The notes below the pieces were generated by a model. It made no database searches, was not told the origin of the DNA, and saw nothing but the letters and a program-made list of their open reading frames with translations. Position numbers and translations under genes: made by a program. From Candidatus Chisholmbacteria bacterium (GTDB taxonomy: Bacteria; Patescibacteriota; Microgenomatia; UBA1400; Chisholmbacteraceae), in NCBI GenBank assembly GCA_963704905.1, contig CAVPHZ010000001.1:515438-579437 (forward strand): a DNA stretch of 64,000 nucleotides, given 5' to 3'. Every line of letters starts with the position of its first letter. Positions within the stretch are counted from its first letter, which is position 1. This document shows positions 27,896-64,000 of the stretch, piece by piece.

Positions 27896-30298
27896 ATGAA
27901 AGCTAACCTGCCCAGGAAAAAAAAGCTTATCCCGATCAGTGAAGCTGCTGAGGTGTTGGGAGTTTCAGTTGATACCATCCGACGATGGGATAAGAAAGGA
28001 ACGCTACACGCGGAAAGACCGAATGGAAAGACGCGGTATTTTTCGCTGGAGGAAATTGAAAACATCAAGTTTTCCAAACCCCTCTCGATCTCTGAGGCAT
28101 CGAAACAATTGGGACTTTCTGCATCTACACTCAGGCGACTTGAGGAAAGAGAGGTACTCAAGCCTGACAGAAATGACGCGGGTGAGCGTCAATATACAAA
28201 GAAAACTCTGGAAGAATTTCTTCATTCAGAGTATTTCCTAAGAAAAAAAGCTGTTGAAGAGAAGATTCTTGAACCGTTTAAAACGGTTGATCATAAAGAT
28301 GATGATGTCCTTTTTTCAGATGCGCCCAAATCACAGGCTGAACCGAACCATAAGACGCTAAGCATCGAAATTGAAGAACAGAGGAGAAGATTACACCATC
28401 TCACCAAGTTTCAACGATCACTCTGGTCCTCTTTACTGTTTCTGACTACAACTTTCATTCTCCTGGTTACCATTATCACCGTGGCATTTTTAATGTATCC
28501 GGAGGAAACTGCTCTGTTTTTTGGCTACAGAAGTCAAGTTGACCGGCCGATGATTGCGGGTGAGACTGATGATGTACAAGTGCTAGGTGCGACATACCCT
28601 GCTGATGCACCTCTTGAACGAGGTACTCTTGTTGGTCGAGCATTGAAACCGTTTAGCCGAGTGTCTTTGGCGGTTGTGAAACGAATTGATGAAGATACCT
28701 ATGAGGAGATTATTCCTGACCGACGTATTCCAGATGTGAATGATGTGTTTACGATTGATGAAGAAGGATATTTAACCAACTACTTCACATTTCGTCCTCC
28801 AGATAGTTCGTTTCTGGCAATTCCTGATAAAGAGCTGATTGAGAACCTAAACTCAGACTATATTCGAGGAAGAGTTCCAGGTGGTGAGGTGGGTAACTTG
28901 GTTTACTTTGGGGAAGATGGTGTGATTGATGGACTGAGTGTGGGGAGTGAGCAGTTAAGAGCTGGGTCGGTGATTGGTGGAGTGGGAGGAGTGATACTTG
29001 ATTCTTCGATTAGCGCTTTTGACTTAGCGGATGGATCGGTGACAACTCCAAAGTTAGCAGAAGAGGCAGTGACCGAGGCAAAAATATCTGGAAAATCGGT
29101 GAGTGAGGGTAAACTAGCCGATGGGGCGGTTACCAGTGACAAGATTGCAGATGACACTATTACTTCTAAGGACCTGGCTCAGGCTATTGTTCTTGGAGAC
29201 GGGGATTTTCTTGACTTAGGGTCGATTGTCCATAATGACAGAGGGATGCAGGGGTTGAGGTTACCAAATGTACCAACGTCAACACCTGAGGCTCCTGAGA
29301 GTGGAGAGGGTTATATCATCTATAGCACCGCAGGTGATGAGGTCATGGTGTTTTCGAATGGTGCATGGAGTTCGGTTGGGGGTGGGGATATTACGGGTGT
29401 TACAGTTGGGAATGGAATGACTGGTGGCGGATTGGTTGGAGATCTTACCGTTAATTTAGATGTAACAACATCTGGGACTACGTTGACGAACTCTGCAAAC
29501 TCTGGGTTAGAGTTGGCTGCTGATGGTTTGAGCATGCTTCGAGGGTGTGCAGATAACGAGATTCTCAAATGGGATTCTGGATCTGGAGTTTGGCAATGTG
29601 AAGGTGATGTGAGCGGAGCTGGGGCAGTGCAAGTTGAAGAGGGAGATAGTTCTGTGGTGGGTTCGCTTACTAACTTGGATTTTCTGGCTGCTGATTTTAT
29701 TGTTTCCCAATCTCCTGTTGGAGAGGGAAACGTTTCAATAGACTATGCGAATAGCAGCATCACGCGTTCGAGTCAAGCAGAAGCGATCACTGGAGGGTGG
29801 ACATTTAACACACTAGGAACGACATTTGCGACGAGCATTGCTGCCAATGGAGGGATTACGTTTGATCAGACAACTGACACGATTGGAGCCCACACTGCGG
29901 CTGGCACTTATGATATGAACACTAACCTAATCACCAACATTGGCAATGCTGGGACTGACTTTGTTAGTGGTGGAGGACTGACTTTGGCTGGAACCCTAAC
30001 CGCCAATGGACAGGTAACCCTAGGAGATGATGGAGATACGGTGGCCATTGATTCATCAGACTGGAACATTGATGCCACCGGAGCAATTACCGGAATCTCC
30101 TTGGATGCTAATGGCACAGGGAACTCCTTGAGCAATATTGAAAATGCTGATTTAGCTAGTGACACTTTAGATTGGGATAAGTTTGCAAATGCTATGACTG
30201 TCGATGAAGCCACGACCCTGGCATCAACTATTGATTTAACTACTTTTGACCTTAATCATTCACCAGTCGGAACTGCCGCTTCACCCCATCAGTTTTGA
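27896..30298 (+). CDS. giant surface repeat protein, segment 1: two excisionase/MerR-type HTH domains, TM helix, extracellular repeats
   Basis: The HTH domains are 'IPISEAAEVLGVSVDTIRRWDKKGTL' and 'SISEASKQLGLSASTLRRLEEREVL'. The TM helix is 'LLFLTTTFILLVTIITVAFLMY'. The frame is lost at about 30290 by a 1-nt insertion relative to the paralogous copy. Confidence 0.6.
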   Translation: MKANLPRKKKLIPISEAAEVLGVSVDTIRRWDKKGTLHAERPNGKTRYFSLEEIENIKFSKPLSISEASKQLGLSASTLRRLEEREVLKPDRNDAGERQYTKKTLEEFLHSEYFLRKKAVEEKILEPFKTVDHKDDDVLFSDAPKSQAEPNHKTLSIEIEEQRRRLHHLTKFQRSLWSSLLFLTTTFILLVTIITVAFLMYPEETALFFGYRSQVDRPMIAGETDDVQVLGATYPADAPLERGTLVGRALKPFSRVSLAVVKRIDEDTYEEIIPDRRIPDVNDVFTIDEEGYLTNYFTFRPPDSSFLAIPDKELIENLNSDYIRGRVPGGEVGNLVYFGEDGVIDGLSVGSEQLRAGSVIGGVGGVILDSSISAFDLADGSVTTPKLAEEAVTEAKISGKSVSEGKLADGAVTSDKIADDTITSKDLAQAIVLGDGDFLDLGSIVHNDRGMQGLRLPNVPTSTPEAPESGEGYIIYSTAGDEVMVFSNGAWSSVGGGDITGVTVGNGMTGGGLVGDLTVNLDVTTSGTTLTNSANSGLELAADGLSMLRGCADNEILKWDSGSGVWQCEGDVSGAGAVQVEEGDSSVVGSLTNLDFLAADFIVSQSPVGEGNVSIDYANSSITRSSQAEAITGGWTFNTLGTTFATSIAANGGITFDQTTDTIGAHTAAGTYDMNTNLITNIGNAGTDFVSGGGLTLAGTLTANGQVTLGDDGDTVAIDSSDWNIDATGAITGISLDANGTGNSLSNIENADLASDTLDWDKFANAMTVDEATTLASTIDLTTFDLNHSPVGTAASPHQF

Positions 30299-31958
30299 AT
30301 TGACCCCAACTTGGGGAATCGATGCTACCGATCAGACTTTGATTGGCCTGAATATCAACCCGAATACCAATGGAAATACGGATAGTGGTGATGTTCTTGA
30401 GGCAATAAGCATTACCAATATCACTGGGACTGTTGGAACGGAGACAGCAATTGATATTGGAACGGGGTGGGATTCAGGATTGTCGATAGGTGGGACAGTT
30501 GTCATTGATGGGTCTGGCAATGTGGCTGCTAGCCAATTGTCAGGGACGCTAATTACTGTAGCTGGGGATTCTGGCTCACAAGCTGTAAGTCAGGGAAATA
30601 CTTTTACAATTGTGGGTGGGACAAACTTATCGACTACTGGTGCGGCTGGACCACAGGTACAAGTTGATTTGAACAACTCTATTACTCTTTCAGGAGATCT
30701 CACAGTCCAGGGACAGAATGTGAATTTTGACAATGCAACTGATATTGATATCGATGATAATCTGACTGATTCTTTAACGATTTCTGTTGGCGCGGATAAC
30801 TATTTAGATATTGATTCTAATAATGGGACTGAAGGGGTGAGTTTTGGGAATGCGGTTACCAATCCGAGTTTCAGCTTCTTAGGATCGGGTGAGGCTGCGT
30901 TTACTGGGAATGTGAATGCCAACTCTGGAGTAGATGTTACGGGTGCAGACCTGACTGTTGGGGGAGCGAATTTCTCTGTAGCATTTGGCAACGGCAACAT
31001 CACCACTGCAGGAACCTTAGCCGTCAACGGAGACCAAATCACCAGTGACGGGAACCTGGTCATCAATGCCACCAGTACGGATATCCAAGATCCGTTAACG
31101 GCTGATTCGCTTACCTTAGACACGGGAGCCTTGGCCATCAACAATGCCGGAGGGATCACCAGTAACCAAGCCACCCTGATTGTCAATGCCGGCGGGAACG
31201 TTGATGTCCAAGATGCTCTGAATGCTGACAGTATCACTTCTGATGCGGGAGTCTCGATCGCCGCCGGCAATGCCTACACCGGAGCGGGAGCGGTGACCCT
31301 GAGTTCAGGAGCAGGAGCTTTAACCCTGGATGCCAACAATGGAAATGTGACCCTCAATACCGATGATGATCTCTTCCCAACCCTGGGAGCAGGAGATGCT
31401 GACCTAGGAGCCAGCGGCACCCGCTGGGACAACCTGTTTGCTGTAGCAGGTAACTTTTCAGGGAATGTGGATGTAGCCAGTGGTGTTGATATTACTGGTG
31501 CTAATCTGACTGTGGGAGCCACCAACTTCGTGGTGACGGTAGGATCCGGAAACGTGGACACCCAAGGCACCATCCAAGCCGGTTCAGGAAACATCACTCT
31601 TACTGATGCGACGGGAAACATCCAAGCCGGAGCGTATGCCCTGGCCTCCATTGACGGAGATGACCTGAACAGCAACCTGGCTGGGAATGGTCTCACCCTT
31701 ACGGCTGGTTCTCCTGATGTTCTCAACATTGCCCTGGATAGTGCTGCTGCTGATGGAAGTACCACTTCCTCCATCTCCGGTCTTGAATTTGACTCAGGAG
31801 AACTGACCCTGATCCGCGGCTGTGGAGCCAACCAGATCCTGAAATGGGACAACATCAACTTTGAGTGGGATTGTGCGGACGACGATGATACGGGAGGAAC
31901 GGTATCTTTAGACTCTGCTTACAACCAACGGAGGGTCCATCACCGTAGATGCCTATGA
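30246..31958 (+). CDS. giant surface repeat protein, segment 2 (frameshift-interrupted continuation)
   Basis: 'FELTPTWGIDATDQTLIGLNINPNTNGNTD' continues the repeat architecture seen intact at 35090. The segment ends at a second 1-nt insertion near 31935. Confidence 0.5.
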   Translation: MTLIIHQSELPLHPISFELTPTWGIDATDQTLIGLNINPNTNGNTDSGDVLEAISITNITGTVGTETAIDIGTGWDSGLSIGGTVVIDGSGNVAASQLSGTLITVAGDSGSQAVSQGNTFTIVGGTNLSTTGAAGPQVQVDLNNSITLSGDLTVQGQNVNFDNATDIDIDDNLTDSLTISVGADNYLDIDSNNGTEGVSFGNAVTNPSFSFLGSGEAAFTGNVNANSGVDVTGADLTVGGANFSVAFGNGNITTAGTLAVNGDQITSDGNLVINATSTDIQDPLTADSLTLDTGALAINNAGGITSNQATLIVNAGGNVDVQDALNADSITSDAGVSIAAGNAYTGAGAVTLSSGAGALTLDANNGNVTLNTDDDLFPTLGAGDADLGASGTRWDNLFAVAGNFSGNVDVASGVDITGANLTVGATNFVVTVGSGNVDTQGTIQAGSGNITLTDATGNIQAGAYALASIDGDDLNSNLAGNGLTLTAGSPDVLNIALDSAAADGSTTSSISGLEFDSGELTLIRGCGANQILKWDNINFEWDCADDDDTGGTVSLDSAYNQRRVHHRRCL

Positions 31959-33700
31959 TGTGCTGTTCACCCTAGCTGATGCCACCAATGACTACGGATT
32001 GGTCATTGATAACAATACCGCCGGGGACATTGCTACCGCCCTGGAATTCACCACCACGGGTGTGGGAGGCACCTTTGCCACCGCCATTGATACCTACTGA
32101 CGGGGGAATCACCACCGGGATCAACCTGGGTACGAGTGATATCGTGGGAACCACTGCCGACATCAACCTGACCAACTTTGATGTCACCGGGTCCAACGGC
32201 AACATCACCACCGCAGGAACCTTGGCCGTCAACGGAGACCAAATCACCAGTGACGGGAACCTGGTCATCAATGCCACCAGTACGGATATCCAAGATCCGT
32301 TAACGGCTGATTCGCTTACCTTAGACACGGGAGCCTTGGCCATCAACAATGCCGGAGGGATCACCAGTAACCAAGCCACCCTGATTGTCAATGCCGGCGG
32401 GAACGTTGATGTCCAAGATGCTCTGAATGCTGACAGTATCACTTCTGATGCGGGAGTCTCGATCGCCGCCGGCAATGCCTACACCGGAGCGGGAGCGGTG
32501 ACCCTGAGTTCAGGAGCAGGAGCTTTAACCCTGGATGCCAACAATGGAAATGTGACCCTCAATACCGATGATGATCTCATCCCAACCCTGGGAGCAGGAG
32601 ATGCTGACCTAGGAGCCAGCGGCACCCGCTGGGACAACCTGTTTGCTGTAGCAGGTAACTTTTCAGGGAATGTGGATGTAGCCAGTGGTGTTGATATTAC
32701 TGGTGCTAATCTGACTGTGGGAGCCACCAACTTCGTGGTGACGGTAGGATCCGGAAACGTGGACACCCAAGGCACCATCCAAGCCGGTTCAGGAAACATC
32801 ACTCTTACTGATGCGACGGGAAACATCCAAGCCGGAGCGTATGCCCTGGCCTCCATTGACGGAGATGACCTGAACAGCAACCTGGCTGGGAATGGTCTCA
32901 CCCTTACGGCTGCTTCTCCTGATGTTCTCAACATTGCCCTGGATAGTGCTGCTGCTGATGGAAGTGTGGGACCGACGGTTCCTCCATCGTCCGGTCTTGA
33001 ATTTGACTCAGGAGAACTGACCCTGATCCGCGGCTGTGGAGCCAACCAGATCCTCAAATGGGACAACGTGAACTTTGAATGGGATTGTGCGGACGACGAC
33101 GATGCCGGACTCTCCACGGAATCTTTAGATACTGCTTATGACCAAGGTGGTTCCATTACCGTGGATGCGTATGATGTGCTGTTCACCCTAGCTGATGCCA
33201 CCAATGACTACGGCCTGGTCATCGATAACAATACCGCAGGTGACATTGCCACCGCCCTGGAATTCACCACCACGGGTGTGGGAGGCACCTTTGCCACCGC
33301 CATTGATACCTCTGACGGGGGAATCACCACCGGGATCAACCTGGGTACGAGTGATATCGTGGGAACCACTGCCGACATCAACCTGACCAACTTTGATGTC
33401 ACCGGGTCCAACGGCAACATCACCACTGCAGGAACCTTAGCCGTCAACGGAGACCAAATCACCAGTGACGGGAACCTGGTCATCAATGCCACCAGTACGG
33501 ATATCCAAGATCCGTTAACGGCTGATTCGCTTACCTTAGACACGGGAGCCTTGGCCATCAACAATGCCGGAGGGATCACCAGCAACCAAGCCACCCTGAT
33601 TGTCAATGCCGGCGGGAACGTTGATGTCCAAGATGCTCTGAATGCTGACAGTATCACTTCTGATGCGGGAGTCTCGATCGCCGCCGGGAACGCCTACACC
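30991..33700. repeat. about 1.21-kb near-identical tandem direct repeat, about 2.2 copies (30991-32195, 32196-33410, 33411-~33700)
   Basis: Direct comparison of the three intervals shows near-identical sequence with a period of about 1205-1215 bp. The first copy starts at 'caacggcaacatcacc'. Confidence 0.85.
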
Positions 33701-36313
33701 GGAGCGGGAGCTGTTACCCTGTCCTCCGCGGCAGGTACTGCTTTAACCATTAACTCGGGTACTACTGGAACTTTGGCAATTGGAGATGATGGGAGCGCTG
33801 AAACTATTAATCTTGGAACTGGAGCTGCTGCTAAGACTCTAGTTTTGGGATCGACGAACACAACAAGCTCAACAGCTATTCGGTCTGGATCAGGAGGAGT
33901 GAATATCAATGCCAGTATTAATCAACCGATGAATATCGGGACTGGTACTTCGACAGGACTGGTTACCATTGGTGGGAGTGCCGCACAAACGATTTCGATT
34001 GCCAATGGAGCGGCAGCAAAGACTCTTAATTTGGGAAGCTCGAATACAACCTCCACAACGACTCTTCTCTCTGGGTCAGGTGGTATTAACTTGAATGCGA
34101 GCAATAACCAACCCGTGAATGTTGCAACCGGTACTTCTGCTGGACTTGTGACTATTGGTGGTAGTGCAGCGCAGTCAATTGCAATAGGAAACGGTGCAGC
34201 TGCCAAGACAGTTACCTTGGGATCGACCAACACCACCAGTACTACGACCATTCAATCGGGAACGGGGAATGTGAATTTCAGCGCAGGAAGTACTGGAGAT
34301 TTTCTTTTCAACGTTGATGATGACAGCACGCTTATTTTAACCGGTTCTGTGACCAATACTGGTTCATTGCAAGATATTAACTTAACCCTTGGTAATGACG
34401 CTGGAGCCGATACGGTAGCAGGTCTTCAGATTGACGTTACCAGTGTGGATACGGGAGCAGACTCTGATGTCCTTTTGGGTCTTAATATCGGGAACCTTAC
34501 GGGAGGGAATGCCAATGTTACGGAGCGTGCTTTACAGATTGGAACCGGATGGGACATGGGTATTGATGTACAAAGTGGGGGGATTACGATTTCTTCTGGG
34601 GCTTTGGCAATTAACAATGCAAGTGGAATTACTTCAAACCAAGCAACCTTAATCATTAACGCTTCCGGAACTGTGGATGTGCAAGACGCCCTGAACGCTG
34701 ACTCGATCACCTCAGATGCTGGAGTCTCGATTGCGGCTGGGAATTCATACACCGGAGCCGGGGCCGTGACCTTCTCAAGCGGTGGTGGGGCTGGACTTAC
34801 AATCGATTCAGCCAATGGAACTATAACCATTCAAACTGATGATGATCTCATACCCACACTTGGGGCCGGAGATGCCGATATCGGGGCATCCGGAACCCGC
34901 TGGGATAACATTTATGCATTGAACTCGAATTTCTCGGGAACAGTTACTGCAAATGACTTTAGCTGTACTGACTGTTTGGATTTTGCCGAACTTGTTAATG
35001 GCATGACGGTGGATGAAGCTACTACAATGGCATCGACTTTGGCGGCTACGACGCTGGACCTTAATGTTTCTCCGGCTGGAACCGCTGCGAGTCCAGTGGC
35101 TTTTGAGATCACTCCAACTTGGGGTATTGATGCAACAGACCAGACGTTGTATGGATTACAGATTAACCCGAACACGAACGGGAATACCGATGCAGGAGAC
35201 GTGCTTGGGGCAATGTTTATTGGGAATATTACCGGAACTGCCGGAACGGAAAGAGCGATTACCATTGGAACCGGATGGGATACGGGACTTGAGATTAATA
35301 GCGGAGGTATCAATGTGGTTGCTGGAGGAATTACGATAGCTTCTGGGGCATTGGCAGTGAACTCCGATTCGATCACATCTGATGGAGCGACTCTGACGAT
35401 CAATGCCGCTGGAACCGTGGATGTTGATGATGTATTGAACGCCAATTCCATTACTTCGGATGCTGGTGTCTCGATAGCCGCCGGGAATGCTTACACCGGA
35501 GCTGGGGCGGTAACGGTATCGTCTGGAGGTGGGGCGACAATAACAATAGACTCAGCAAACGGAAGCGTAACCTTCCAGACAGACGATGATCTTATTCCAA
35601 CGCTTGGAGCTGGGGATGCTGATCTCGGTTCTTCAGGACTGCGATGGGATAACGTTTTTGCAACTGTTGGGAATTACGCAAGTACTTTAAATGCCGATGG
35701 AACCGTTACGATTGGGACCGGCGGGAATACCTTTACCTTTGATCCCTCGAGTGGACCGACGTATGCCGGGACGGCGAGGATCAGTAAAACTATGACACTG
35801 CATGCTGAGTACGCAGGTGCGACACTTTCTGATTATTATGGCGCTGGAACGGACTCAAATACTTCAGGGACGATGATTGCAGATGTTGAGCCGAATGCAA
35901 CTGACCTGCAACGGACGTACTACGAATGGGAGCGCGGTGCTGCTACACAACATTTCCAGACGGTTGCGGTTCGGGTGACGCTTCCGCAGGATTTTGCTGC
36001 ATGGCAGACAAGTAATGCCATGGTTGTTGATTTTGAAACCGAGAATACGACGAGTACAAACAGCGATGTGGATGTGCGAGTGTACCTGGAAAGTGATGCG
36101 ACAACTGCAGTTGCAACGAGTGCTGATAACGCCTCTTCGGTCGCGAATACTTGGGAGACGGTTACGATTGATGATAGCGTTCTTGATGATGGTGGTGCTC
36201 CTGAGTGGGATGCGGCTGGGGAAACGGTGGTTATATACTTGCGGATGGGATCGCAGAGTGGAAACCATGTGCGAGTTGGGGATATCACTTTAAATTACCT
36301 AGCCCAGTTTTAA
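31979..36313 (+). CDS. giant surface repeat protein, segments 3 and 4 (continuation; the true frame resumes at about 32101 after the stop at 32098..32100, and a short 31960..32100 piece is in a third frame)
   Basis: It holds near-identical repeats of the segment-2 sequence and shares modules with the 51805 gene, such as NADSITSDAGVSIAAGNAYTGAGAVT. The first 40 codons of the listed ORF are out of the repeat frame. Confidence 0.55.
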   Translation: MPPMTTDWSLITIPPGTLLPPWNSPPRVWEAPLPPPLIPTDGGITTGINLGTSDIVGTTADINLTNFDVTGSNGNITTAGTLAVNGDQITSDGNLVINATSTDIQDPLTADSLTLDTGALAINNAGGITSNQATLIVNAGGNVDVQDALNADSITSDAGVSIAAGNAYTGAGAVTLSSGAGALTLDANNGNVTLNTDDDLIPTLGAGDADLGASGTRWDNLFAVAGNFSGNVDVASGVDITGANLTVGATNFVVTVGSGNVDTQGTIQAGSGNITLTDATGNIQAGAYALASIDGDDLNSNLAGNGLTLTAASPDVLNIALDSAAADGSVGPTVPPSSGLEFDSGELTLIRGCGANQILKWDNVNFEWDCADDDDAGLSTESLDTAYDQGGSITVDAYDVLFTLADATNDYGLVIDNNTAGDIATALEFTTTGVGGTFATAIDTSDGGITTGINLGTSDIVGTTADINLTNFDVTGSNGNITTAGTLAVNGDQITSDGNLVINATSTDIQDPLTADSLTLDTGALAINNAGGITSNQATLIVNAGGNVDVQDALNADSITSDAGVSIAAGNAYTGAGAVTLSSAAGTALTINSGTTGTLAIGDDGSAETINLGTGAAAKTLVLGSTNTTSSTAIRSGSGGVNINASINQPMNIGTGTSTGLVTIGGSAAQTISIANGAAAKTLNLGSSNTTSTTTLLSGSGGINLNASNNQPVNVATGTSAGLVTIGGSAAQSIAIGNGAAAKTVTLGSTNTTSTTTIQSGTGNVNFSAGSTGDFLFNVDDDSTLILTGSVTNTGSLQDINLTLGNDAGADTVAGLQIDVTSVDTGADSDVLLGLNIGNLTGGNANVTERALQIGTGWDMGIDVQSGGITISSGALAINNASGITSNQATLIINASGTVDVQDALNADSITSDAGVSIAAGNSYTGAGAVTFSSGGGAGLTIDSANGTITIQTDDDLIPTLGAGDADIGASGTRWDNIYALNSNFSGTVTANDFSCTDCLDFAELVNGMTVDEATTMASTLAATTLDLNVSPAGTAASPVAFEITPTWGIDATDQTLYGLQINPNTNGNTDAGDVLGAMFIGNITGTAGTERAITIGTGWDTGLEINSGGINVVAGGITIASGALAVNSDSITSDGATLTINAAGTVDVDDVLNANSITSDAGVSIAAGNAYTGAGAVTVSSGGGATITIDSANGSVTFQTDDDLIPTLGAGDADLGSSGLRWDNVFATVGNYASTLNADGTVTIGTGGNTFTFDPSSGPTYAGTARISKTMTLHAEYAGATLSDYYGAGTDSNTSGTMIADVEPNATDLQRTYYEWERGAATQHFQTVAVRVTLPQDFAAWQTSNAMVVDFETENTTSTNSDVDVRVYLESDATTAVATSADNASSVANTWETVTIDDSVLDDGGAPEWDAAGETVVIYLRMGSQSGNHVRVGDITLNYLAQF

Positions 36314-38015: not shown

Positions 38016-38043
38016 CTAACGAAGCTGGCTAGAATACAGATTT

Positions 38044-39716: not shown

Positions 39717-39765
39717 CAGAGCAGAGCTCGACGATAAAGGATTTTTGATTTAAGATTTAAGTGTC

Positions 39766-50687: not shown

Positions 50688-50787
50688 TGTTTGTCCCGTA
50701 AACTCCTGGCTCGGTACATCTCGCCAGGTTATTACGGGATGACTGGATCGCACTATTGAGTTTAGCAATCCAGTCAAATGGAGAAAT

Positions 50788-51042
50788 ATGGCGAAGTTTA
50801 TTTTGAATGTCAGGATCAATAGCCCAGAGAAGATCATTTGGGAAGGGCAAGCATTGTCTGTGTCTTCTGAGAACAGTGAGGGACCGTTTGATATTTTGCC
50901 AAAACATGCAAATTTTATTACAGCAATCGAGGAAAAACCGATCAAGATAAAAACTCCAGATAAGAAAAAAATTGAGTATACGTTCCCACGGTCAGTACTT
51001 TACATGCATGATGATCTGGTGAGTATTTATACGCAGATTTGA
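50788..51042 (+). CDS. atpC: F-type ATP synthase epsilon subunit (beta-sandwich domain only)
   Basis: It has 'LNVRINSPEKIIWEGQALSVSSENSEGPFDILPKHANFITAIEEKPIKI'. At 84 aa it has no C-terminal helical hairpin. Confidence 0.7.
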   Translation: MAKFILNVRINSPEKIIWEGQALSVSSENSEGPFDILPKHANFITAIEEKPIKIKTPDKKKIEYTFPRSVLYMHDDLVSIYTQI

Positions 51043-51804
51043 AATGTTCATTTCTTTGCTTGTCCAAAGAAACGAACCAAAGAAAAGACAGGCCTGCTCT
51101 CGCGGTTGAATCACCTTCGATTTATCAGTGGAGATGGGGCCTCTCCGAAATTCCTTCGCAAGGCTCAGTCAGTTTCGGTTTCTCCTCCTGATAAATCGGG
51201 TGTTTCTAAACCACTTTCGCAAAGTCCTATATTTCTAGAGCGATCAAAAGGGTCTCGACAATTTCATTTTCATTAGTTGTGTTCTAAGAGATTCTTCAGT
51301 CATCGCTATTGTGGGTTCAATTATTTCCAGGCTAAAGTTGTTGGCGGGAACTTCAGAAGAGTGCTATTTCCTCAAGAATTCTCCAAGGCAAATTATTTAC
51401 GTTTTCAGTTATTTGAGGTGATTATTCTTTACTTGAGGTTCTCCTCTGGATTCAATTTGCATAGGTTTACCCTATCTTGGTACTTGACAAGGTATTCATA
51501 ATAGTACTTTAATGTACTTATCAATAGCAAAAGTTGTATAAAAGACTCATATAACAGGAAATTATAATAGCACTTCAATCACCACACGAATATATGAAGA
51601 ACAGCATCTACCAGAGGAAACTAGCTTTAGAAGTAAATACTAGCAAAATTATTTTCACGCAAGGGACATTTAACGTCCAACTTTGGTTTGATCTATCATT
51701 AGAAAATACCGATAAATCGGTCTTTTATAATTATTGCAACAATATTCGCTAGATATTACTAAGTTATGAATATTCGCCTGCCCAAGCGAATATAACCCGC
51801 CCAT

Positions 51805-57800: not shown

Positions 57801-60800
57801 TTTCTCGTCTGCCGGAGCCGCAGTATTTAATGAGCAATCGAACAGCGTTAACTTCAGAGTTGAGGGAAATAATGATCCTGATCTCATTTTTGCTGATGGA
57901 TCATCTGACACGGTTACCATTGGAGCTCAACTTGAACTGGGGAAATTGGGAGTGAGAGGAGATCAAGATGAAATTCAGTTTCGAGTGCGTGGAAACAGCA
58001 CCCAAAATGCAAACCTGATGGTGATTGAACAAAACAGCGGTGCAGATGCTTTGTCTGTTTCCAATGCTGGATTAACTTCAACTGCTGACTTGACGCTCGG
58101 TCTCAATGATACAACTGCAACCATTTCTACTAGTGATGTTGATGAAGATTTAACTATTGATCCGAACGGAACTGGCGATATCTACTTCAATGGGTCGACC
58201 TACGTGTTGACTGATTCAGGTGATTTTACGATTGGGGGCAGACAAACTTTTGAGAATGGTGAGTACATTCAGAATGAAACTGATGATATTTTTGCGTTCG
58301 TAGGCGCATCTGGCGTTGATGACACTGATCTGTATCTCAACCTCGATGGTAGCTATCCCATTCTTTATTCTAATACCGATACAACAATTGGTATTGATGA
58401 TGACCTGCAATTCATTGGCGCAACGAACATATCAAATACCAGTGGCAATCTTTCGATTAGCGCGGCTACAGATCTGTCAATTGACTCTACCAGTGATGTA
58501 AATATCGGTCCAACGTATGCGGCATTTATCACTATTGGGTCTTCGACATTAAATTCGGTTACGATAGACACCGATGGAACAGGTGACGGAGAACTTATTC
58601 TTCCTGACAGTTCTGTTTCATCTTTGGAAATTGTTAATGACAGTTTGACACCTACTGACTTTGCAGCAACGCTCACTTTTACTGATGGCGATTTTCTAGA
58701 TCTGGCAAGCATTGTTCCTTCAAGCAGTATCAATGAAGGTCTTCGATTGCCGCAATCATCCGGAGCGTTAGGTGAACCAGGATCCGGAGAAGGATATCTC
58801 GCATATCGAACTGATACCAACACTATTCAATACTATGATGGGGCTGACTGGCAATCAGTCGCATCATCGACGCCAATCTGGACTGATGACGGAACCATTA
58901 CCTATCTTATTTCCGCTACAGATGATATGGCGGTAGGAGGAACGTCTTTAGCTGCACCATTTTCTGTTGATGTGAGTGCGAATGCTGTTCGGATTGGAGA
59001 TGGTACTGTAGCTGGGAACGGCCGACTTACCATGTACGCCTCTGATACTGATCAGGGTACTATTATATTTAACACGAATGATCAATTTGAATTTAATGGT
59101 GCGGATGTTCTGGTTGACCAAGATTTCAGAGTTAATGGGAACACAACGCTTGATGATGATGTCTATATTGGAGCAACAACTTTAGCCGCTCCTTTTTCTG
59201 TAGATGTTTCGACTAATACGGTTCGACTTGGGGATGGAACCGCAAGCGGAGATGCGACACTGCTGATGTTCTCTTCGGGTGGAGATGTGGGGACACTTGC
59301 GTATACAACCAGTGATGAGTTCAATTTTCAAGGCGGAAATATTCGAACTGCGGGAATTATAGTTGAGGGTAACACAACGCTGGGAGATCAAGTCACCGAT
59401 ACGGTTACTGTTACTGGTTCTTTAAACAGCAATGTTAACTTTCTTGATCAGAACAACACCAGTTATACCGTTGCCGGTGCAGATGCTGGGACCGCTACTG
59501 GAAATGCTGGGAACCTGACAATTCGGGCTGGGTCTGGAGGATCAACGAGCGGAAGTGGTGGAGATCTCATCTTGTCTGCCGGGACAGTTACCTCTGGTAC
59601 CCCTGGAGATCTCAATTTGCGGACTAACAATGTTGACCGATTAGTCATTCAAGGAGATGGAACATTCCGATTTGAAGAAGGTGTGAATGACTTTATTCTC
59701 GATGTAAATGCGCCAACTGGGGCTGACAGAACAGGCACGATACCGACACTCTCTAGTAACGACACATTTGTGTTTGAGTCACTATCTCAAACTCTAACAA
59801 GCAAGACTTTAATATCTCCTACTATATCAGGTTCTCCAACGGCTGTGGGGGCTGCATGGGCTGATCTAGGGTCAGTAGCAACGATTGATATCAATGGGGG
59901 GACGATTGATGGAACTGCAATTGGCGGGAGCACTCCATCATCAGGTGCGTTTACGACTCTCTCATCAACCGGTGTAACTACCATTGGAAATGGCAGCTCA
60001 ACTGTTGCGATTGATAGCAATGATTGGGACATTACGAGTATTGGTGTGGGAACCGGGTTTAACTCCTGGACGGTTGATAATGTGATTATCGATGGAAATG
60101 ATATCGGGTTGGTTTCTGACACTGATCTGCTTTCTTTTACCGATAGCAATCTGACAGTGAATGGGGATGTGACGATCACGGGTGGGGATATAACCGGTGC
60201 AGCTGGAGCTGCATTGGATTTGGGTGAGCAAAACTCTGGAGATGTGACGGTTACTGGAGACTTGATTTTGGCTGATGACGCCTTCATTGGGATTGGTGGG
60301 AGTGCAGCCCGAATCGTGTTTGACTCGACACCAACTCCAGATCAGATCGATATTCTTTCTGCAAGCTTAGACATGAATAACAATATCATTACGAATATCG
60401 GGAATGCTGCGACTGATTTTGATACAAACGGCGGACTGACATTAGCTGCTGATTTGGCGGTTAATGGTGGAGACCTGACAACCACTGACTCTACTTTCAA
60501 TTTGGTGAATAACACGCCAACTACCGTCAATTTTGCCGGGAATGCAGGAGCTATTTCTATCGGAGCTGTAACCGGGACGACGACGGTGAATCACAATCTT
60601 ACGGTTGCGGGGGTGTTCACCGCAAACGGCCAGGCGAATATCGGTGACGGCGGGGATACGGTGGCGATAAACTCGAGCGATTGGGATATCACCTCGACCG
60701 GTGTAGGAACAGGGTTTGATTCATGGACGGTAGACAACTTGATTATTAATGGGAATAACATCGGGACGCTTACCGATCAGGACTTGATTGTATTTGCCGA

Positions 60801-62769
60801 TAACCTGCTCACCTTAAATGGTGGATTGACAATGAGTGGAACGTTGGATGCCAATGGACAAGTAGATTTGGGAGATGGTGGTGATGCGGTAGCTGTATCC
60901 GGAACAACTGTGACGATAAGCGCTAATGGTTCAACCAATGACATCACGATGAATTTAGTAGACAACAATACTGATGCCTTTGATCTCCAAGAAGGGACTA
61001 ATAATTACATTAACATCAATACTTTGGATGGATCAGAAGAGATTGAACTAGGTAACACTGTAACTAATCCAGACATTACTTTGATTGGGAGCGGAGCGTT
61101 TAACTGTACAGATTGTATTGATTTTGATGACTTGAGTGACAATATGAGCGTGGATGCAGCGACCACCATTAGTCTTGACGCGAATAACTTTGCAATTAAC
61201 ATGAATTCTACTGGGGAGTTTATTCTTCAGGATAATGGTGGAGATATCTTCCGCGCTGATGATTCCACGGGAACAATGACCTTTTCCGATGATGTCGACC
61301 TTCAATTTGCCGGAGCTGAGAATCTTACTATTTCAAATGTCAGCGTCACTAGTGGTGCGGATATTGTGGCTTTGAACATGACTGTTCCCGACTCGACGAG
61401 TGCTGACGCCATGCATATCTCAATTACTGATAATTCAGCCAGTAGCGGGAATGTGCGTGGACTAGTAGTTGAGACAGGTAACGGTGCCGCGACACTTGAC
61501 TCAGCAATCGCGATTAACCACACAGATACTGGTCAGGCAATGACGGCTGGGATTGAGATTACCGGTGATCCTTCTACTGCAATTACTATTGCCCTTGATG
61601 TCGATGATCCTGAGATTGTTACCGCACTTTCAGCTGGGGCAAATGATTTAACGGGGACAAACTGGAGCATTAATGGGTCAACTGGGAGTTTAACATTAAC
61701 CGGTGATGCAGCTGTGAACGGTGGGGATTTAACTTCTACAGCTGGGACACTGAACATCAATGCCGGTGGCAATGTCGATGTTCAAGACGCGTTGAATGCT
61801 GACAGTATAACCACTGACACAGGTGGTGTGACCATTGCTGCTGGGCAGAGTTACACTGGCGCTGGGACTGTGACGCTTTCATCCGGAGGAGCGGCTGGAC
61901 TCACGCTTGACTCAGCAAGTGGAACAATTAACCTGAGTACAAATGATGATTTAGCCGCAAGTGGCGACGTTGACCTGACGTTTGCAGGTACTGAGAACTT
62001 GGCAATGACATCTGACCTGGCCGGGACGGTTAATGTCACCAGCATTGTTACAACTCCTTCGAATACTGCGGGGACGACGCGTGGGATATTTCTTCAGCAA
62101 ACAAATTCTGCCAATACCAATGGCCTTGATAGTGCGATTGTGGTTGATAATGCTGATCTTAATTTGGCGATTGGAACAGCAATTCAGATTACTGACTCAG
62201 GTGGTGGAGGATACACCACAATTCTTGATACACCTACGACTGATATCAGTGGTACTGGTGATATTAGCGTGCCAGCTGGGACTGGACTTGATACAAATGC
62301 AATAGGCACGTTGAATTTGGGAGCTGGTTTGGCAAATGCTATTTCAGTCGGCACAAGCGGGATGACTACAACCGTCAATGGTTCCCTGACGGTTACTGAG
62401 ACGCTGACTGGGACAGGTGAGGTGGTTCTTGGAGATGGTGGAGATAATGTCACGATTGATAGTGCAGATTGGGATATTACCAGTACAGGAGTTGGAACAG
62501 GATTTGATTCTTGGACGGTTGATAGTCTGATTCTCAATGGGATTACCATTGGTTTAACTACCGATACTGATCTGCTTTCCTTAGCAGATAACGCATTGAC
62601 AGTGAATGGTGACATGACGCTCACTGGAGGGGATATCACCGGCGCCGGGGGTGCTGCAATCGATATTGGTGAGGCGAATGCTGGAGATATTACCTTAACC
62701 GGTGATGTCATTGTTGGTGAGGATGCGTTTGTGGGACTTGTCAGCAACTGGAGCGCGGTTCGTTTTTGA
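51805..62769 (+). CDS. giant (3654 aa as called) membrane-anchored surface repeat protein with N-terminal phage-integrase SAM-like (core-binding) domain
   Basis: The N-terminus 'FLQQQGLSGVSIKNYTADVNKFIKWLE...STIKRYTAVLNRFYSWI' matches the integrase N-terminal SAM-like pattern. The TM helix is 'IPMPIAAISGITIVVMFGIAFVSI'. It then carries more than 3,400 aa of Gly/Thr/Asp/Asn-rich repeats. The repeat sequence continues beyond the stop at 62769 in other frames. Confidence 0.7.
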   Translation: MSSLPKDFSRFLQQQGLSGVSIKNYTADVNKFIKWLEATADGPVAAHYIRKNHIDQYLASLETEGVAESTIKRYTAVLNRFYSWIHPTQVRKETTPPLARYKPRKRGAPRKASSGRGLSQPDLAQVMEQMKAQESPFAKLASIPMPIAAISGITIVVMFGIAFVSINHLYSLFAGQRTTSTLPAEFATVPGDVFEDLQRGRVLTAQTEGGVLEFGTNVGTGSAALAVDKSDAFVGGFALDESEYITIPESLLLDTAYGRVLAAATSSGVLEINTDTEIAATLTVTGDGTYGGLVTALGGIQTQNADINAGTGELTASNVIYDVLAGTNITITGDAQSPVINADTAGIDTIIGTSGRITVSTAADPVLDISTDYAGQTSISTLGTITNGTWQGTEIDVVYGGTGLTSVASGQLLYGTGTDTLGTRTLAAGTNLTLTDSGTALTYATSLTPTFNYITSTATSSGIATTQYGGDYITTTATSSGFSFNVGDGGAFRFSDGTNTLFQILDGNEFGVASLSGKQNVGDPACQPGQIYFNEAGSVFKACTAENTWTTIADENGPVTFHPASADSWGDANPGIWLDEIGAGSPDLFRLQVGGSSRFVVPNDGGFQSAVGGAGTAYLNLSSTGDFEIQDAGTPFVSFLDNGTVTFDGASTFNTDVNLVMDGAENVTLTNAAATADQLALTVGGVTTDAVDGIVVDFTQADDADGTDTNAALFVDVTSSSGDADTLYGVRIDAITGGAATETALDIGAGWDTAINIGGGSIVTAGGYTQSGASQNTFTGNVDATNGLDVTNADLTVGGANFAVDDATGDITSLGDATIGGRITFENSEYISNETDDLIIFSGSGGSDDTDLVFNLDGVAPVIYSQSDSAIRIDDDLHFVGDQNITTTSGNLSIVPNGILTIDTSSVLNVGTGTATAINFGNASLDSFTVITNGSGDSEVVLPAQSISSTEVLNESLDTNDFAATLTFSDGDFIDLGSIQPTGGINEGFRLPQVTGAIPSPASGEGYLAYRDDANTVEYFDGSSWITIAAQTPLWADDGTITHLISNTDDLSVGGITLASPFSVDVDTNTARIGDGVTTNANLSMYSSTADTGTLTYNTSDTFQFSGGDVLIDQALEVTAITTLSDDLIVGGTTLASPFSVDESANTVRIGDAATGNATLALYASTGQTGSLLFNTSDQFQFTGGDVRMDQDLTVLDDTTLGNAATDSITLTGSIATNVNFLDSGVGTDRSIAGSDATGGNSAGGDLTVRAGNATGVGQGGDLTLAPGLAGGGGTGGDVVFQTGDTVLATRFTIGNDGTLTQSGTGQVTFSGNVDATSGLDVSGGNLTLTAANDIVLSSGALDTTGGVLNIADTNASSIAMGHASLGSLTVVTDGTGDSEVVLPDQSISSTEILDDTVATSDLAASLVFADGDFIDLASIINSAGVNEGFRLPQSSSALGNPSSGEGYIAYRSDSNNIQFYDGTQWVTLASFTPLWTDDGTISYLIDTADDLAVGGTTLNSPFSVDVSANTVRVGSGATVDAVLQLYAQDNDTGNLTYNVNDQFQFSGGDVLIDQDFRVTQTTTLDDDLYVGATGLAAPFSVDESLNTVRVGDGSGTNATITMYASDNDVGSFLYNTNDSFEFQGGNVQVDQNLTVQEDTTFGDATTDTITVTGSFNSNLNFLDADNQNYTFAGADAVTGSGNAGDLTIRAGSGGATTGNGGDLVLAGGTVTSGTAGYIAFQTDNTERLRIENDGDLFFERGSEDLTVQISAPSGASRVATIPALTADDTFVFEVQTQTLSNKSLASPSITGSPTAAGASWTDLGSVSTIDINGGTIDGTSIGVTTPASGTFTTLSSSGVTTIGNGTSTVAIDSSDWDITAAGVGTGFDSWTVDNLIIDGSNIGRTSDPDLLNFANAILTVNGDVRLANNSNIEVGGLTGVAYNAISDGGGSASFASTDNDLYIEDILEVDGTVYIGGKPLSASALWENESNVFHPIDEYAGVVDLTIGGEATSSADIYFSSAGAAVFNEQSNSVNFRVEGNNDPDLIFADGSSDTVTIGAQLELGKLGVRGDQDEIQFRVRGNSTQNANLMVIEQNSGADALSVSNAGLTSTADLTLGLNDTTATISTSDVDEDLTIDPNGTGDIYFNGSTYVLTDSGDFTIGGRQTFENGEYIQNETDDIFAFVGASGVDDTDLYLNLDGSYPILYSNTDTTIGIDDDLQFIGATNISNTSGNLSISAATDLSIDSTSDVNIGPTYAAFITIGSSTLNSVTIDTDGTGDGELILPDSSVSSLEIVNDSLTPTDFAATLTFTDGDFLDLASIVPSSSINEGLRLPQSSGALGEPGSGEGYLAYRTDTNTIQYYDGADWQSVASSTPIWTDDGTITYLISATDDMAVGGTSLAAPFSVDVSANAVRIGDGTVAGNGRLTMYASDTDQGTIIFNTNDQFEFNGADVLVDQDFRVNGNTTLDDDVYIGATTLAAPFSVDVSTNTVRLGDGTASGDATLLMFSSGGDVGTLAYTTSDEFNFQGGNIRTAGIIVEGNTTLGDQVTDTVTVTGSLNSNVNFLDQNNTSYTVAGADAGTATGNAGNLTIRAGSGGSTSGSGGDLILSAGTVTSGTPGDLNLRTNNVDRLVIQGDGTFRFEEGVNDFILDVNAPTGADRTGTIPTLSSNDTFVFESLSQTLTSKTLISPTISGSPTAVGAAWADLGSVATIDINGGTIDGTAIGGSTPSSGAFTTLSSTGVTTIGNGSSTVAIDSNDWDITSIGVGTGFNSWTVDNVIIDGNDIGLVSDTDLLSFTDSNLTVNGDVTITGGDITGAAGAALDLGEQNSGDVTVTGDLILADDAFIGIGGSAARIVFDSTPTPDQIDILSASLDMNNNIITNIGNAATDFDTNGGLTLAADLAVNGGDLTTTDSTFNLVNNTPTTVNFAGNAGAISIGAVTGTTTVNHNLTVAGVFTANGQANIGDGGDTVAINSSDWDITSTGVGTGFDSWTVDNLIINGNNIGTLTDQDLIVFADNLLTLNGGLTMSGTLDANGQVDLGDGGDAVAVSGTTVTISANGSTNDITMNLVDNNTDAFDLQEGTNNYININTLDGSEEIELGNTVTNPDITLIGSGAFNCTDCIDFDDLSDNMSVDAATTISLDANNFAINMNSTGEFILQDNGGDIFRADDSTGTMTFSDDVDLQFAGAENLTISNVSVTSGADIVALNMTVPDSTSADAMHISITDNSASSGNVRGLVVETGNGAATLDSAIAINHTDTGQAMTAGIEITGDPSTAITIALDVDDPEIVTALSAGANDLTGTNWSINGSTGSLTLTGDAAVNGGDLTSTAGTLNINAGGNVDVQDALNADSITTDTGGVTIAAGQSYTGAGTVTLSSGGAAGLTLDSASGTINLSTNDDLAASGDVDLTFAGTENLAMTSDLAGTVNVTSIVTTPSNTAGTTRGIFLQQTNSANTNGLDSAIVVDNADLNLAIGTAIQITDSGGGGYTTILDTPTTDISGTGDISVPAGTGLDTNAIGTLNLGAGLANAISVGTSGMTTTVNGSLTVTETLTGTGEVVLGDGGDNVTIDSADWDITSTGVGTGFDSWTVDSLILNGITIGLTTDTDLLSLADNALTVNGDMTLTGGDITGAGGAAIDIGEANAGDITLTGDVIVGEDAFVGLVSNWSAVRF

Positions 62770-64000
62770 TGGAACCCCTGCTCCAGATGAAATTGATGTT
62801 CTTTCTGCGACGCTCGATTTGAACAACAACCTGATCACCAATATTGGCAGCGCGGGAACTGACTTTACCTCAGGTGGTGGGTTGACCTTGGCAGGTAACG
62901 CCAATTTGACTTTGTCGAGTGGAACCGGATCGCTTGTCATGACAAATGCCGTGACTAATGTTTCTGAGCAGGTGATTGATATTGCCCCTGGGTTTACCGG
63001 GGGAGGTTCAGACGGGCTTAACTATAATGTTATCGATATCGCGGCGTTTGCGCCGAGTAATGCGAGCGGAACAGATTATGTTGATGGCATTTCGATTGGG
63101 AATCTCACCGATCCGGGAGGGACTATCGAAAGTACGGCGATTGATATTGGGACTGGATGGGATTATGCCCTGCGAGTAGCGGGCACGACGGTGGTTGATG
63201 GTTCTGGCAATATTCCTTCCGGGTTACTGACCGGAACACTTTTTGACTTGGATGCAGATAGCGGGACTCTTCAAAACGTTGAGCAGGGTGATGAAGTTGA
63301 CCATCGCTGGAGGGACAAATATCTCAACCGTGGTAGGCGCGACGGATACGGTTACCGTGAACCTCGACCCCTCGATTACCTTGACCGGGGATGCGGCAGT
63401 CAATGGTGGAGATATCACTACAAATGCTGACGTTTTTAATCTCATCGACACCGATGCGGAGACGGTCAACTTTGCCGGAGCGGCAACCACCCTGAATATT
63501 GGTGCTTCGTCGGGCACGACGGCGATTGCCAATGCACTTGATATCGCCGGGGCTTTAACCGCGAACGGGAATATTGATTTGGGGAACGCGGCTACAGATT
63601 CAATTACATTTAATGGCAGCATTGACAGTAACGTGAACTTTTTGGATGCGGCGGTCGGGGTTGACTATACGCTGGCCGGTTCGGATGCGACGGGGGTCAA
63701 CAGCGCGGGTGGGGATCTTACCGTTCGGGGTGGTAGTGCCACGGGGAATGCTTTGGCAGGAAACTTGACTTTAGCGGGTGGAATCGCCGGGGTAGGCGGG
63801 ACGGGCAATAGCATCATCTTCCAGACCGGGGACCAGGCTTTGTCCACTCGTTTAACAATAGAGAACGACGGGGACATTACCCAGGCGGGAAGCGGGCAGG
63901 TGACGTTTACGGGGAACGTTGATACCACCAGCGGGCTGGATGTTTCCGGTGGGAACCTGACGATTGCTGCGGCAAACGATATCCTATTATCAACTGGTGC
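62702..64000 (+). CDS. continuation of giant repeat protein in shifted frames (62702..63430 frame, then a further frame from about 63293 to window end)
   Basis: 'FVFDGTPAPDEIDVLSATLDLNNNLITNIGSAGTDF' parallels 'IVFDSTPTPDQIDILSASLDMNNNIITNIGNAATDF' at 60310. An open frame 'KLTIAGGTNISTVVGATDTVTVNLDPSITLTGDAAVNGG...' runs to 64000. Confidence 0.5.

Follow-up and report, generated by a model that had tools for sequence, protein, structure and literature searches.

Why should proteins that look like giant surface fibres begin, on their cytoplasmic side, with domains of DNA-binding type? The question is raised by a 64,000-nt stretch of a Candidatus Chisholmbacteria contig (GenBank CAVPHZ010000001.1, positions 515,438 to 579,437), here called the window, which carries two giant genes of this kind, giant 1 and giant 2. 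Patescibacteria, also called the Candidate Phyla Radiation (CPR), encode few classical regulators, and how episymbionts among them sense and hold their hosts is an open question. That the window stems from a small-genome CPR bacterium, as had been supposed, is supported by its source contig of 772,908 bp and by the nearest relatives of its genes, which lie in metagenome-assembled genomes (MAGs) of Saccharibacteria and Patescibacteria. A first-pass annotation, made from the sequence alone, had described a dedicated surface or host-interaction island of paralogous giant repeat proteins with novel N-terminal domains. Its observations are borne out in part, with several corrections needed, and of its interpretation the surface-fibre anatomy and the heads stand whereas the dedicated island does not. 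Our preferred reading, in which we place about even confidence, is that the giants are membrane-tethered DNA-binding surface fibres that regulate their own expression.

Domain architecture and topology of the two giants

Both giant genes lie on the plus strand, as previously described, though not as clean single open reading frames (ORFs). Their main parts are as follows.

27896..36313, plus strand: giant gene 1, 2,804 aa once three single extra bases are removed
27932..28225, plus strand: giant 1 head (aa 13–110), two tandem MerR/excisionase-type winged helices, by Pfam
28433..28489, plus strand: giant 1 single transmembrane (TM) helix (aa 180–198), by hydropathy scan and AlphaFold2 (AF2; helix aa 153–200)
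51805..64000, plus strand: giant gene 2, at least 4,064 aa, running off the window, with extra bases near 62740 and 63298
51823..52056, plus strand: giant 2 head (aa 7–84), integrase-type SAM-like core-binding domain, by Pfam and NCBIfam
52243..52299, plus strand: giant 2 single TM helix (aa 147–165), by hydropathy scan

The N-terminal nucleic-acid-binding-type domains are real, with two MerR-type helix-turn-helix (HTH) domains in giant 1 and a Phage_int_SAM_1 domain in giant 2. In giant 1, PF13411 (MerR_1, E = 1.8e-21) matches two stretches, aa 13–59 and 63–99, and PF00376 (E = 1.5e-20) likewise matches two. AF2 modeling with 11 homologs placed both domains at a predicted local distance difference test score (pLDDT) of about 80–85, followed by a helix at aa 112–129, a disordered linker and the long helix that includes the TM segment. 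The best Foldseek matches are MerR-family DNA-binding domains, BldC (6AMA) and RacA (5I44), with BldC fitting each half of the head at a TM-score of 0.80–0.84 and a root-mean-square deviation of 1.2 Å over 49 residues. As a single sequence, the head has no match in a PDB sequence search, and the second HTH with its following helix gives a weak profile alignment to CueR residues 2–106 (E about 1e-3).

The head of giant 2 matches PF02899 (Phage_int_SAM_1, E = 3.6e-9) and PF13495 (E = 9.6e-8), and the NCBIfam XerD model is matched at positions 2–93 of 290 only. No Phage_integrase match, that is, no recombinase catalytic domain, was found in 3,654 aa of giant 2; after aa 90 the chain continues as a basic linker, the TM helix and a repetitive ectodomain. 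In both giants, as read from the sequence, basic residues precede the TM helix, acidic residues follow it, and a signal peptide is absent, a distribution that places the heads in the cytoplasm and everything else outside. On these signals both giants are predicted to be type-II (N-in/C-out) single-pass membrane proteins.

Conservation of the head–membrane fusion

Headless giant homologs in relatives had been named beforehand as evidence against a functional fusion; instead, relatives keep the double MerR head and TM helix (MerRx2+TM) on giant ORFs, and SAM-like heads are kept likewise. The MerR family was collected by a homolog search with giant 1 aa 1–420 and a module scan of 185,579 species genomes. 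Its members share the MerRx2, TM and juxtamembrane regions at 33–62% identity (best local alignment) and come from Candidatus Saccharibacteria and other Patescibacteria MAGs. The head starts ORFs of 2,492 aa (locus L003), 2,920 aa (L009), 2,581 aa (L011, a complete 915-kb chromosome), 2,698 aa (L012), 1,912 aa (L021) and 1,421 aa (L031), as well as ORFs that run off their contigs after at least 3,516, 3,739 and 3,444 aa. In Daviesbacteria MAGs (L016–L019) the same head, with its leader palindrome, stands before a small extracellular SH3_3 domain in proteins of 291–355 aa in total, indicating that the head is a portable cassette and not specific to giants.

The SAM family was collected by an exhaustive HMMER search with giant 2 aa 1–330, which returned 246 representative clusters. 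Among the best 150 of these, 22 are proteins of 1,000–3,306 aa with two SAM-like domains and a TM helix, and many others are fragments; a scan with a 7-sequence alignment added the same architecture in three metagenome loci (L081, L084 and L087). A word-indexed homolog search with giant 2 aa 1–200 gave one 132-aa fragment only (P0376, 72% identity).

The heads are the best-conserved part of these proteins, with 68% and 58% identity in the two MerR domains versus 26–40% elsewhere, and their invariant residues sit in SxDTxRRWD and STLRRLE, motifs of the recognition helix. In its juxtamembrane region, giant 2 aligns to the MerR-headed protein P0034 (31% identity, E = 1e-20), and sequence comparison thus indicates that heads are exchanged on homologous ectodomains. 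Conserved heads across families, together with this exchange, argue that the fusion of a DNA-binding-type head to a membrane-anchored ectodomain is functional and old.

Head-type-specific palindromes in the gene leaders

New in this analysis are conserved palindromes in the leaders of MerR- and SAM-headed genes, each specific to its head type. The leader elements of the window, together with a second palindrome on the opposite strand, are listed here.

27820..27892, plus strand: giant 1 leader, with a perfect TTGACA -35 (27820–27825), a weak -10 TTCAAT by eye and a diverged palindrome at 27862–27892
26650..26690, minus strand: canonical MerR-family palindrome CACCTACGCAAAGCCTAACCAATGCATAGGTAG, with TTGACA at 26706–26701, 10 nt upstream
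51741..51800, plus strand: giant 2 leader, with AATATTCGC twice in direct orientation, the second copy forming an inverted repeat

Leaders of MerR-headed genes share the palindrome ACCTAKGCA-N12-TGCATAGGT, abutting the start codon. Its canonical form is also given as ACCTATGCA-N12-TGCATAGGT, and in full it reads T-ACCTAKGCA-nnG-GTTAACC-AAT-GCATAGGT-A, or ACCTAKGCA-nnGGTTAACCAAT-GCATAGGT. The element was found in at least 18 of 30 loci, short SH3 members included, and ends 3–10 nt before the start codon. The strict half-pattern is matched in six loci, once per locus and at the leader, and the chance expectation of the palindrome pattern in the window is 0.00; in an alignment of 21 leader sequences, 8 columns are invariant in all. 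Several loci carry, by eye, a TTGACA/-10 pair about 13 nt before the palindrome (28 nt in L012), with spacers beside TTGACA of about 16–18 nt. In giant 1 the leader can be aligned gap-free with 18 leaders of relatives, and its palindrome stops 3 nt short of the ATG; the putative promoter was read by eye and is not in the tool's promoter scan.

SAM-headed genes carry a different palindrome, TGTAACAGCTTGA-N5-7-TCAAGCTGTTACA, in all seven loci (L081–L087); it lies 16–34 nt before the start codon and follows a conserved box that resembles TTATTATAAAT. The inverted repeat in the giant 2 leader reads ATATTCGC-CTGCCCAA-GCGAATAT, with N8 between the arms. Because the type of element follows the type of head, whatever the size of the ectodomain, we infer that each head binds the leader of its own gene.

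The same elements might instead work as RNA, as a 5'-untranslated hairpin that controls translation or stability of the very long mRNAs independently of the head. The position of the palindrome, ending 3–10 nt before the ATG with a Shine-Dalgarno-like AGGU in its 3' arm (..AUAGGU..), would suit such a role; the leaders of L004 (z = -3.2), L012 (z = -3.7) and, in a shifted register, giant 1 (z = -2.4) fold better than shuffled sequences, and giant 2 has a different inverted repeat at the same place. However, the arms vary independently, with 74.2% of cells paired versus 74.4% after shuffling and a covariation of 0.090 versus 0.100, as would be expected of a DNA palindrome bound by protein more than of an RNA hairpin under selection, although many of the copies could fold as RNA. 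Mid-stem mismatches are frequent (unpaired in 13 of 21 sequences at columns 13/32 and in 11 of 21 at columns 15/30), the loop GGTTAACCAAT is a conserved palindrome in its own right, shuffled sequences fold as well as the canonical copy of the window (z = -0.5), and no Rfam match was found. We regard the RNA explanation as unlikely.

A second alternative grants the palindrome and disconnects it from the protein. The heads may no longer bind DNA and may serve as basic, fast-folding plugs or interaction modules that fix the N-in topology or anchor the fibre to a partner in the cytoplasm, much as the HTH of RodZ binds MreB. In line with this, three fold types precede a TM helix (MerR, SAM-like and, in this lineage only, an IS481-type HTH), such that size and charge may matter more than fold, and no MerR-type effector-binding or dimerisation domain was found by Pfam or PDB profile. 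Yet conservation is concentrated in the recognition-helix motifs that are shared with DNA-binding MerR and excisionase proteins, and each head type is paired with its own conserved palindrome, leaving this explanation distinctly unlikely.

Finally, the heads could bind DNA without regulating it, tethering the chromosome in a RacA-like manner, or their own locus, to the membrane for synthesis and export in place. RacA is among the best structural matches, the head leaves the ribosome first, and the putative site lies in cis at the 5' end of the gene. We nevertheless consider this improbable: one site per locus is seen, whereas RacA uses many, and small SH3 proteins, for which co-translational tethering brings no obvious gain, share this head and palindrome. 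Leader binding with a regulatory outcome remains our preferred account of the palindromes.

Further observations concern the DNA around these leaders. A third palindrome copy lies at about 26165–26205 on the minus strand, its last 12 bases identical to those of the giant 1 leader. This copy and the canonical one fall in a 1.3-kb AT-rich gap (25441–26744) between a histidine kinase gene and a Fic-like gene, where no ORF exceeds 89 aa and a tblastn search for decayed MerR or SAM-like coding remnants gave only E = 0.37 at best; the two copies may have been left behind by lost paralogs, or may serve as decoy sites or small-RNA promoters. Between the Fic-like gene and the giant gene of three genomes, ATGATAAG(A/T) boxes recur about 62 nt apart (window 27785–27795 and 27848–27858; L002 9847–9927; L022 9821–9904) and may be the -10 regions of divergent promoters. 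The repeated TGATAAGA motif of this interval was considered as a regulatory site and rejected, the 8-mer being not enriched in the window as a whole (7 found versus 3.3 expected); it probably belongs to the -10/start region.

Repetitive ectodomains

Beyond the membrane, both giants show the cell-surface-fibre anatomy that had been proposed for them, with an N-in signal-anchor and a huge repetitive ectodomain; like fibrillar adhesins they have a long repetitive stalk fixed to the envelope, here by a TM anchor of N-in charge bias. Both ectodomains are rich in Gly, Thr, Ala, Asp, Ser and Asn (the first five making up about 54–55% of the composition) and carry tail-fibre-like motifs and Cys-pair motifs. 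In giant 1 the repeat unit is about 402 aa long and present in 2.3 copies at 87–100% identity, plus older copies, and giant 2 contains super-repeats at 50–68% identity. The most recent expansion is visible at the DNA level.

30989..33748, plus strand: recent tandem duplication inside giant 1, period about 1,205 nt, 2.3 copies, 96% identity

This duplication suggests ongoing repeat expansion or gene conversion. It overlaps the G+C-richest stretch of giant 1 (up to 0.54 at 32–34 kb).

The best alignments between the two giants show 54–57% identity over about 130 aa, besides one of 32% over 126 aa. Three sequence modules had been quoted as shared, and only the first is common to both: NADSIT..IAAG..YTGAG occurs five times in giant 1 and as one variant, seen by eye and missed by the regular expression, in giant 2. 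The other two belong to one giant each, WDIT..GVGTGFDSWTVDN occurring four times in giant 2 only and LIRGCGANQILKWD in giant 1 only. Among database matches, the repeat region is best matched in PDB profiles by a chain named 'orf16' (9eg4_H, E = 8e-4), and the L003 homolog has a weak H_lectin match (E = 3e-4) at its extreme C-terminus. The C-terminal 245 aa of giant 1 have no match in Pfam (E up to 5), NCBIfam or PDB. Contact with the surface of the host, or of neighbouring cells, is a role for which the fibre is a good candidate.

Frame breaks and gene integrity

The reading frames of both giants are interrupted in the assembled sequence. Giant 1 is divided mechanically into ORFs at 27896–30298, 30246–31958 and 31979–36313, with a fourth frame used at about 31925–32100. 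One extra base each at 30260–30296, 31929 and 32096 accounts for this division, and their deletion yields 2,804 codons with no stop. The bases at 31929 (C) and 32096 (A) are single insertions relative to the 96%-identical tandem sister copy within giant 1, both falling in copy 1 of the duplication at 30989–33748. Giant 2 meets a stop at 62769, after which reading resumes in other frames up to the window end, and the second of two tandem secreted paralogs downstream of giant 1 is repaired to 556 aa by two single-base deletions (38150–38181 and 39154). The window thus holds seven frame breaks, every one a +1 insertion (30260–30296, 31929, 32096, 38150–38181, 39154, ~62740 and ~63298) and all within giant or secreted surface genes; an adjacent-open-frame scan combined with Pfam coverage found no clear frame break in the other ~40 kb.

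In a separate, independent assembly (run ERR12037370), which is co-linear with window 39766–51805, giant 2 stays open over 3,680 aa as far as the contig end, 79 nt beyond the stop in the window, and the break near 62740 is missing. This assembly reads through 62769, so that this break, at least, reflects a difference of assembly or strain.

Were the breaks real, these genes would be pseudogenes and the strain would no longer make the full-length proteins. The clustering of seven breaks in about 24 kb of surface genes, with no clear one in the other ~40 kb, speaks for such decay, as does the position of several breaks at non-homopolymer sites. On the other side stand the ERR12037370 assembly, the restriction of the breaks to single-base insertions, and the three of them that are insertions against a near-identical sister copy, as unpolished consensus errors in repeats would give; moreover, the repaired genes show no further stop in 2,804, 556 and 4,064 codons. 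We judge decay to be rather improbable, and the giant and secreted genes are probably intact, the breaks notwithstanding. Two other explanations of the interruptions were discarded. A prfB-like programmed +1 frameshift, suggested by TTT TGA after two breaks, was ruled out by paralogous copies that place the shift upstream of the site, and stop-codon reassignment was dropped, the interruptions being frame changes that single-base deletions fully repair. As a warning, single-base insertions split the giant repetitive genes of this assembly into fragments in automatic annotation.

Genomic neighbourhood

The genes around giant 1 include the following.

26745..27698, minus strand: Fic-like gene, its active-site motif degenerate, with a winged-helix region at the C-terminus, divergent from giant 1
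36321..38015, plus strand: secreted paralog 1, 564 aa, with a signal peptide, starting 8 nt after the giant 1 stop
38044..39716, plus strand: secreted paralog 2, 556 aa after repair, with a signal peptide, its real start at 38044
39766..40797, plus strand: membrane-anchored 343-aa protein with a Pro/Thr-rich tail and a syntenic homolog in L021
40784..41635, minus strand: 283-aa protein with an N-terminal TM helix, the remainder coiled-coil by eye, and a syntenic homolog in L021
42391..43839, plus strand: three-part ORF with an IS481-transposase-like HTH (aa 8–118), a TM helix (aa 254–272) and an extracellular LytR_C domain

An F1Fo ATP synthase (atp) operon, absent from the earlier account of the locus, occupies about 44248–51042, between giant 1 and giant 2, and the giants are therefore not one contiguous island. 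Nor does base composition set them apart. The G+C content at third codon positions (GC3) is 0.373 in giant 2 versus 0.379 in housekeeping genes, a native codon usage; in giant 1 it is somewhat higher (0.448). The raised overall G+C of the giants arises because their Gly/Thr/Ala-rich composition loads second codon positions, at which G+C is 0.50 in the giants versus 0.36.

A comparison across relatives shows instead that the block around the giant recurs as a conserved chromosomal neighbourhood, which, together with the atp operon between the giants and the native GC3 of giant 2, sets aside the proposal of a dedicated island. In L021 a MerR-headed giant is followed by a secreted-protein homolog (51% identity to secreted paralog 1), a 343-aa homolog, a 283-aa homolog on the opposite strand and a LytR_C homolog. 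In L003, L009, L011, L021 and L031 the MerR-headed giant has a LytR_C gene directly downstream, and a Fic-like gene lies divergently upstream of the giant in L002 (43% identity) and L022. The locus is thus a native, conserved chromosomal context, neither an acquired island nor a prophage. The two secreted paralogs and the small membrane proteins 3' of giant 1 would be members of one conserved block of genes with it; the ATP synthase operon that separates the giants would be no more than a neighbour. As a separate observation, the atp operon also lies near the MerR-headed gene in L011, L023, L024 and L025, within a few kb and in either orientation in distant relatives.

Tail-fibre genes of a prophage remnant could be misread as cellular surface proteins, and phage-like signals do occur in the ectodomains: the tail-fibre families PHROG 892 and 28766 match short stretches (E about 1e-11 over 53–85 aa), and there are many tail-fibre-like matches to the motif GQTSISTLGTITxGTW. 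A search of PHROGs found no phage genes beyond these short motifs, and no capsid, terminase, portal, lysis or recombinase catalytic genes or any other phage family among the neighbours. The neighbours are instead a histidine kinase, the Fic-like gene and the ATP synthase operon, codon usage is native, the giants carry a cytoplasmic head and a TM anchor, and the synteny is chromosomal and conserved in several genomes. A prophage origin, which had been named beforehand as evidence that would argue against a functional fusion, is in our judgment highly improbable.

The two tandem secreted paralogs at 36321–39716 are present as described, their proteins 74% identical and their 3' 780 nt 92.5% identical. 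Paralog 1 has no family match in Pfam (including E up to 5), PHROGs, NCBIfam or PDB, and no similarity was detectable between the secreted paralogs and the giants. At the DNA level the C-terminal halves (37235–38016 versus 38935–39717) are 92.5% identical and the N-terminal halves about 70%, a pattern that may reflect gene conversion or a constrained shared C-terminal domain with N-terminal diversification.

The degenerate Fic gene upstream was read correctly, its motif being KPISEKNGKLAR in place of HPFxxGNGRxxR. It therefore lacks the motif HPFx[D/E]GNGRxxR that defines Fic AMPylases, where it reads KPISEKNGKLAR, and its scores for Pfam Fic (E = 0.0019; 19.5 bits versus a 24-bit cut-off) and SoFic-like_C (E = 0.0018) are both below the curated cut-offs, with NCBIfam SoFic at E = 7e-11. 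A beta-propeller label given to the 343-aa protein found no Pfam (E up to 5) or PDB match. For the 42391–43839 ORF, described as HTH-TM-LytR_C, the TM and LytR_C parts are conserved in relatives, whereas the HTH part is IS481-transposase-like (E = 5e-17) and missing in the relatives' homologs; this ORF is weaker evidence for an HTH–TM theme than the giants. Its N-terminal ~200 aa are in frame and resemble the DNA-binding part of an IS481 transposase. The head may be a lineage-specific fusion, or an insertion-sequence remnant read through into the gene, and the real start could be an internal Met about 40–50 residues before the TM helix.

Further upstream, at 22814–25440 on the minus strand and just before the surface-gene region, lie the genes of a histidine kinase (HisKA_7TM, GAF, HisKA and HATPase_c) and of a response regulator that consists of a receiver only. 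L007, L030 and L031, too, have histidine-kinase homologs in the vicinity of the MerR-headed gene. A 216-aa Pyr_redox_2 fragment at 16405–17055 (minus strand) is probably a truncated thioredoxin-reductase-like gene, with a full-length 362-aa paralog 2 kb away at 19189–20277 (plus strand). Rfam and tRNA scans of the window were both empty.

Proposed mechanism

If the giants are autoregulated, membrane-tethered fibres, the chain of events could run as follows. The protein would insert N-in/C-out, with the first 90–130 residues staying in the cytoplasm and forming a sequence-specific DNA-binding head. The C-terminal 2,600 to >3,900 residues would project from the surface as a long, internally repeated extracellular fibre of phage-tail-fibre-like modules, possibly ending in a distal binding tip, which the weak H-type lectin match of the L003 homolog would fit. 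The head would bind the palindrome that its own gene carries between promoter and start codon, and would thereby limit further expression. Being tethered, it could also pass events at the fibre on to transcription, by ToxR/CadC-type logic.

Several findings weigh against this model. The giant 1 leader is diverged, its right arm reading ACCTAAGCA and not GCATAGGTA, while the canonical palindrome of the window lies 1.2 kb from giant 1 on the other strand with no recognisable gene behind it. The giant 2 leader is without the palindrome of the other SAM-headed genes. Canonical MerR operators sit in a long -35/-10 spacer, whereas the palindrome is placed downstream of the putative -10; some other factor could be what recognises it, or it could act at the RNA level. 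On the protein side, Pfam and NCBIfam recognise no adhesin domain in either ectodomain, the C-terminal 245 aa of giant 1 reach a pLDDT of only 43 when modeled by AF2 as a single sequence, and, given the seven frame breaks, the window copies may be pseudogenes.

A broader and more tentative idea, which we hold to be rather doubtful, is that such proteins act as contact sensors across the CPR, with fibres or SH3 domains wired through a TM helix to mobile-element-derived heads that recognise a cognate 5' palindrome, possibly also at other genes, and so convert host-surface events into transcription. Whatever their role, two recognisable families (MerRx2-TM-X and SAM-like-TM-X) and two DNA motifs can now be searched for in any CPR genome, and the heads look like DNA-binding modules of mobile elements domesticated on membrane proteins. 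Should the heads bind the palindromes, they would provide a one-protein link from cell surface to gene expression and a handle for genetics in culturable Saccharibacteria.

Comparison with known systems

Very large surface-targeted proteins are known from Patescibacteria, as are adhesins that epibiotic growth requires (PMC13059738; PMC10633639). The giants resemble these published giants and fibrillar adhesins in being very large, repetitive and predicted to lie at the surface, where a role in host recognition has been proposed for the published proteins; descriptions of the latter rest on signal peptides or TM segments, together with adhesin domains such as FN3, VCBS and dockerin. The giant genes of Omnitrophota have other N-terminal features (10.1101/2023.11.21.568195). 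In the literature searched, which covered few subscription journals, we found no description of MerR-type or integrase core-binding-type heads on such proteins, or of leader palindromes. Phage tail fibres share with the giants short motifs and a repeat-rich, fibre-like composition, and the giants differ from them by cellular context, TM anchor and head. With tyrosine recombinases (XerC/XerD and phage integrases), giant 2 shares the SAM-like core-binding domain of its head and lacks their catalytic R-H-R-Y domain.

Among characterised proteins, the one closest to the head of giant 1 is TraN of pIP501, in which one chain carries two MerR/excisionase-like winged HTH domains; TraN recognises specific DNA sequences and controls the tra operon (PMC10877727). 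Structurally, each half is matched best by BldC, a MerR-like winged helix of minimal form. Both are small and soluble, whereas giant 1 goes on with a long helix, the TM segment and an ectodomain of giant size. Canonical MerR proteins (CueR, SoxR and BmrR) have the N-terminal winged-helix fold and motifs in common with giant 1, which differs in joining two HTH domains in one chain and in lacking an effector-binding domain; in place of a coiled-coil dimerisation helix and effector domain, only the helix at aa 112–129, the linker, the TM helix and the ectodomain follow. Their operators lie in a 19–20 bp -35/-10 spacer, whereas the palindromes here lie beside the start codon.

RacA of Bacillus subtilis is a soluble MerR-like protein that anchors the chromosome to the cell pole via DivIVA and uses many chromosomal sites. 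It resembles giant 1 in its MerR-like winged helix, which in RacA attaches DNA to a membrane-associated site, and differs from both giants in having neither a TM helix nor an ectodomain. ToxR, TcpP and CadC combine a cytoplasmic N-terminal DNA-binding domain, one TM helix and an extracytoplasmic C-terminal domain, and the giants likewise have a head, a single TM helix and an outer domain in one chain and would, like them, act on DNA from within the membrane. Unlike ToxR, the giants carry heads of MerR/excisionase or integrase core-binding type, with predicted DNA binding, in place of an OmpR-type winged helix, and their outer part is a repetitive fibre of 2,600 to >3,900 residues in place of a small periplasmic sensor.

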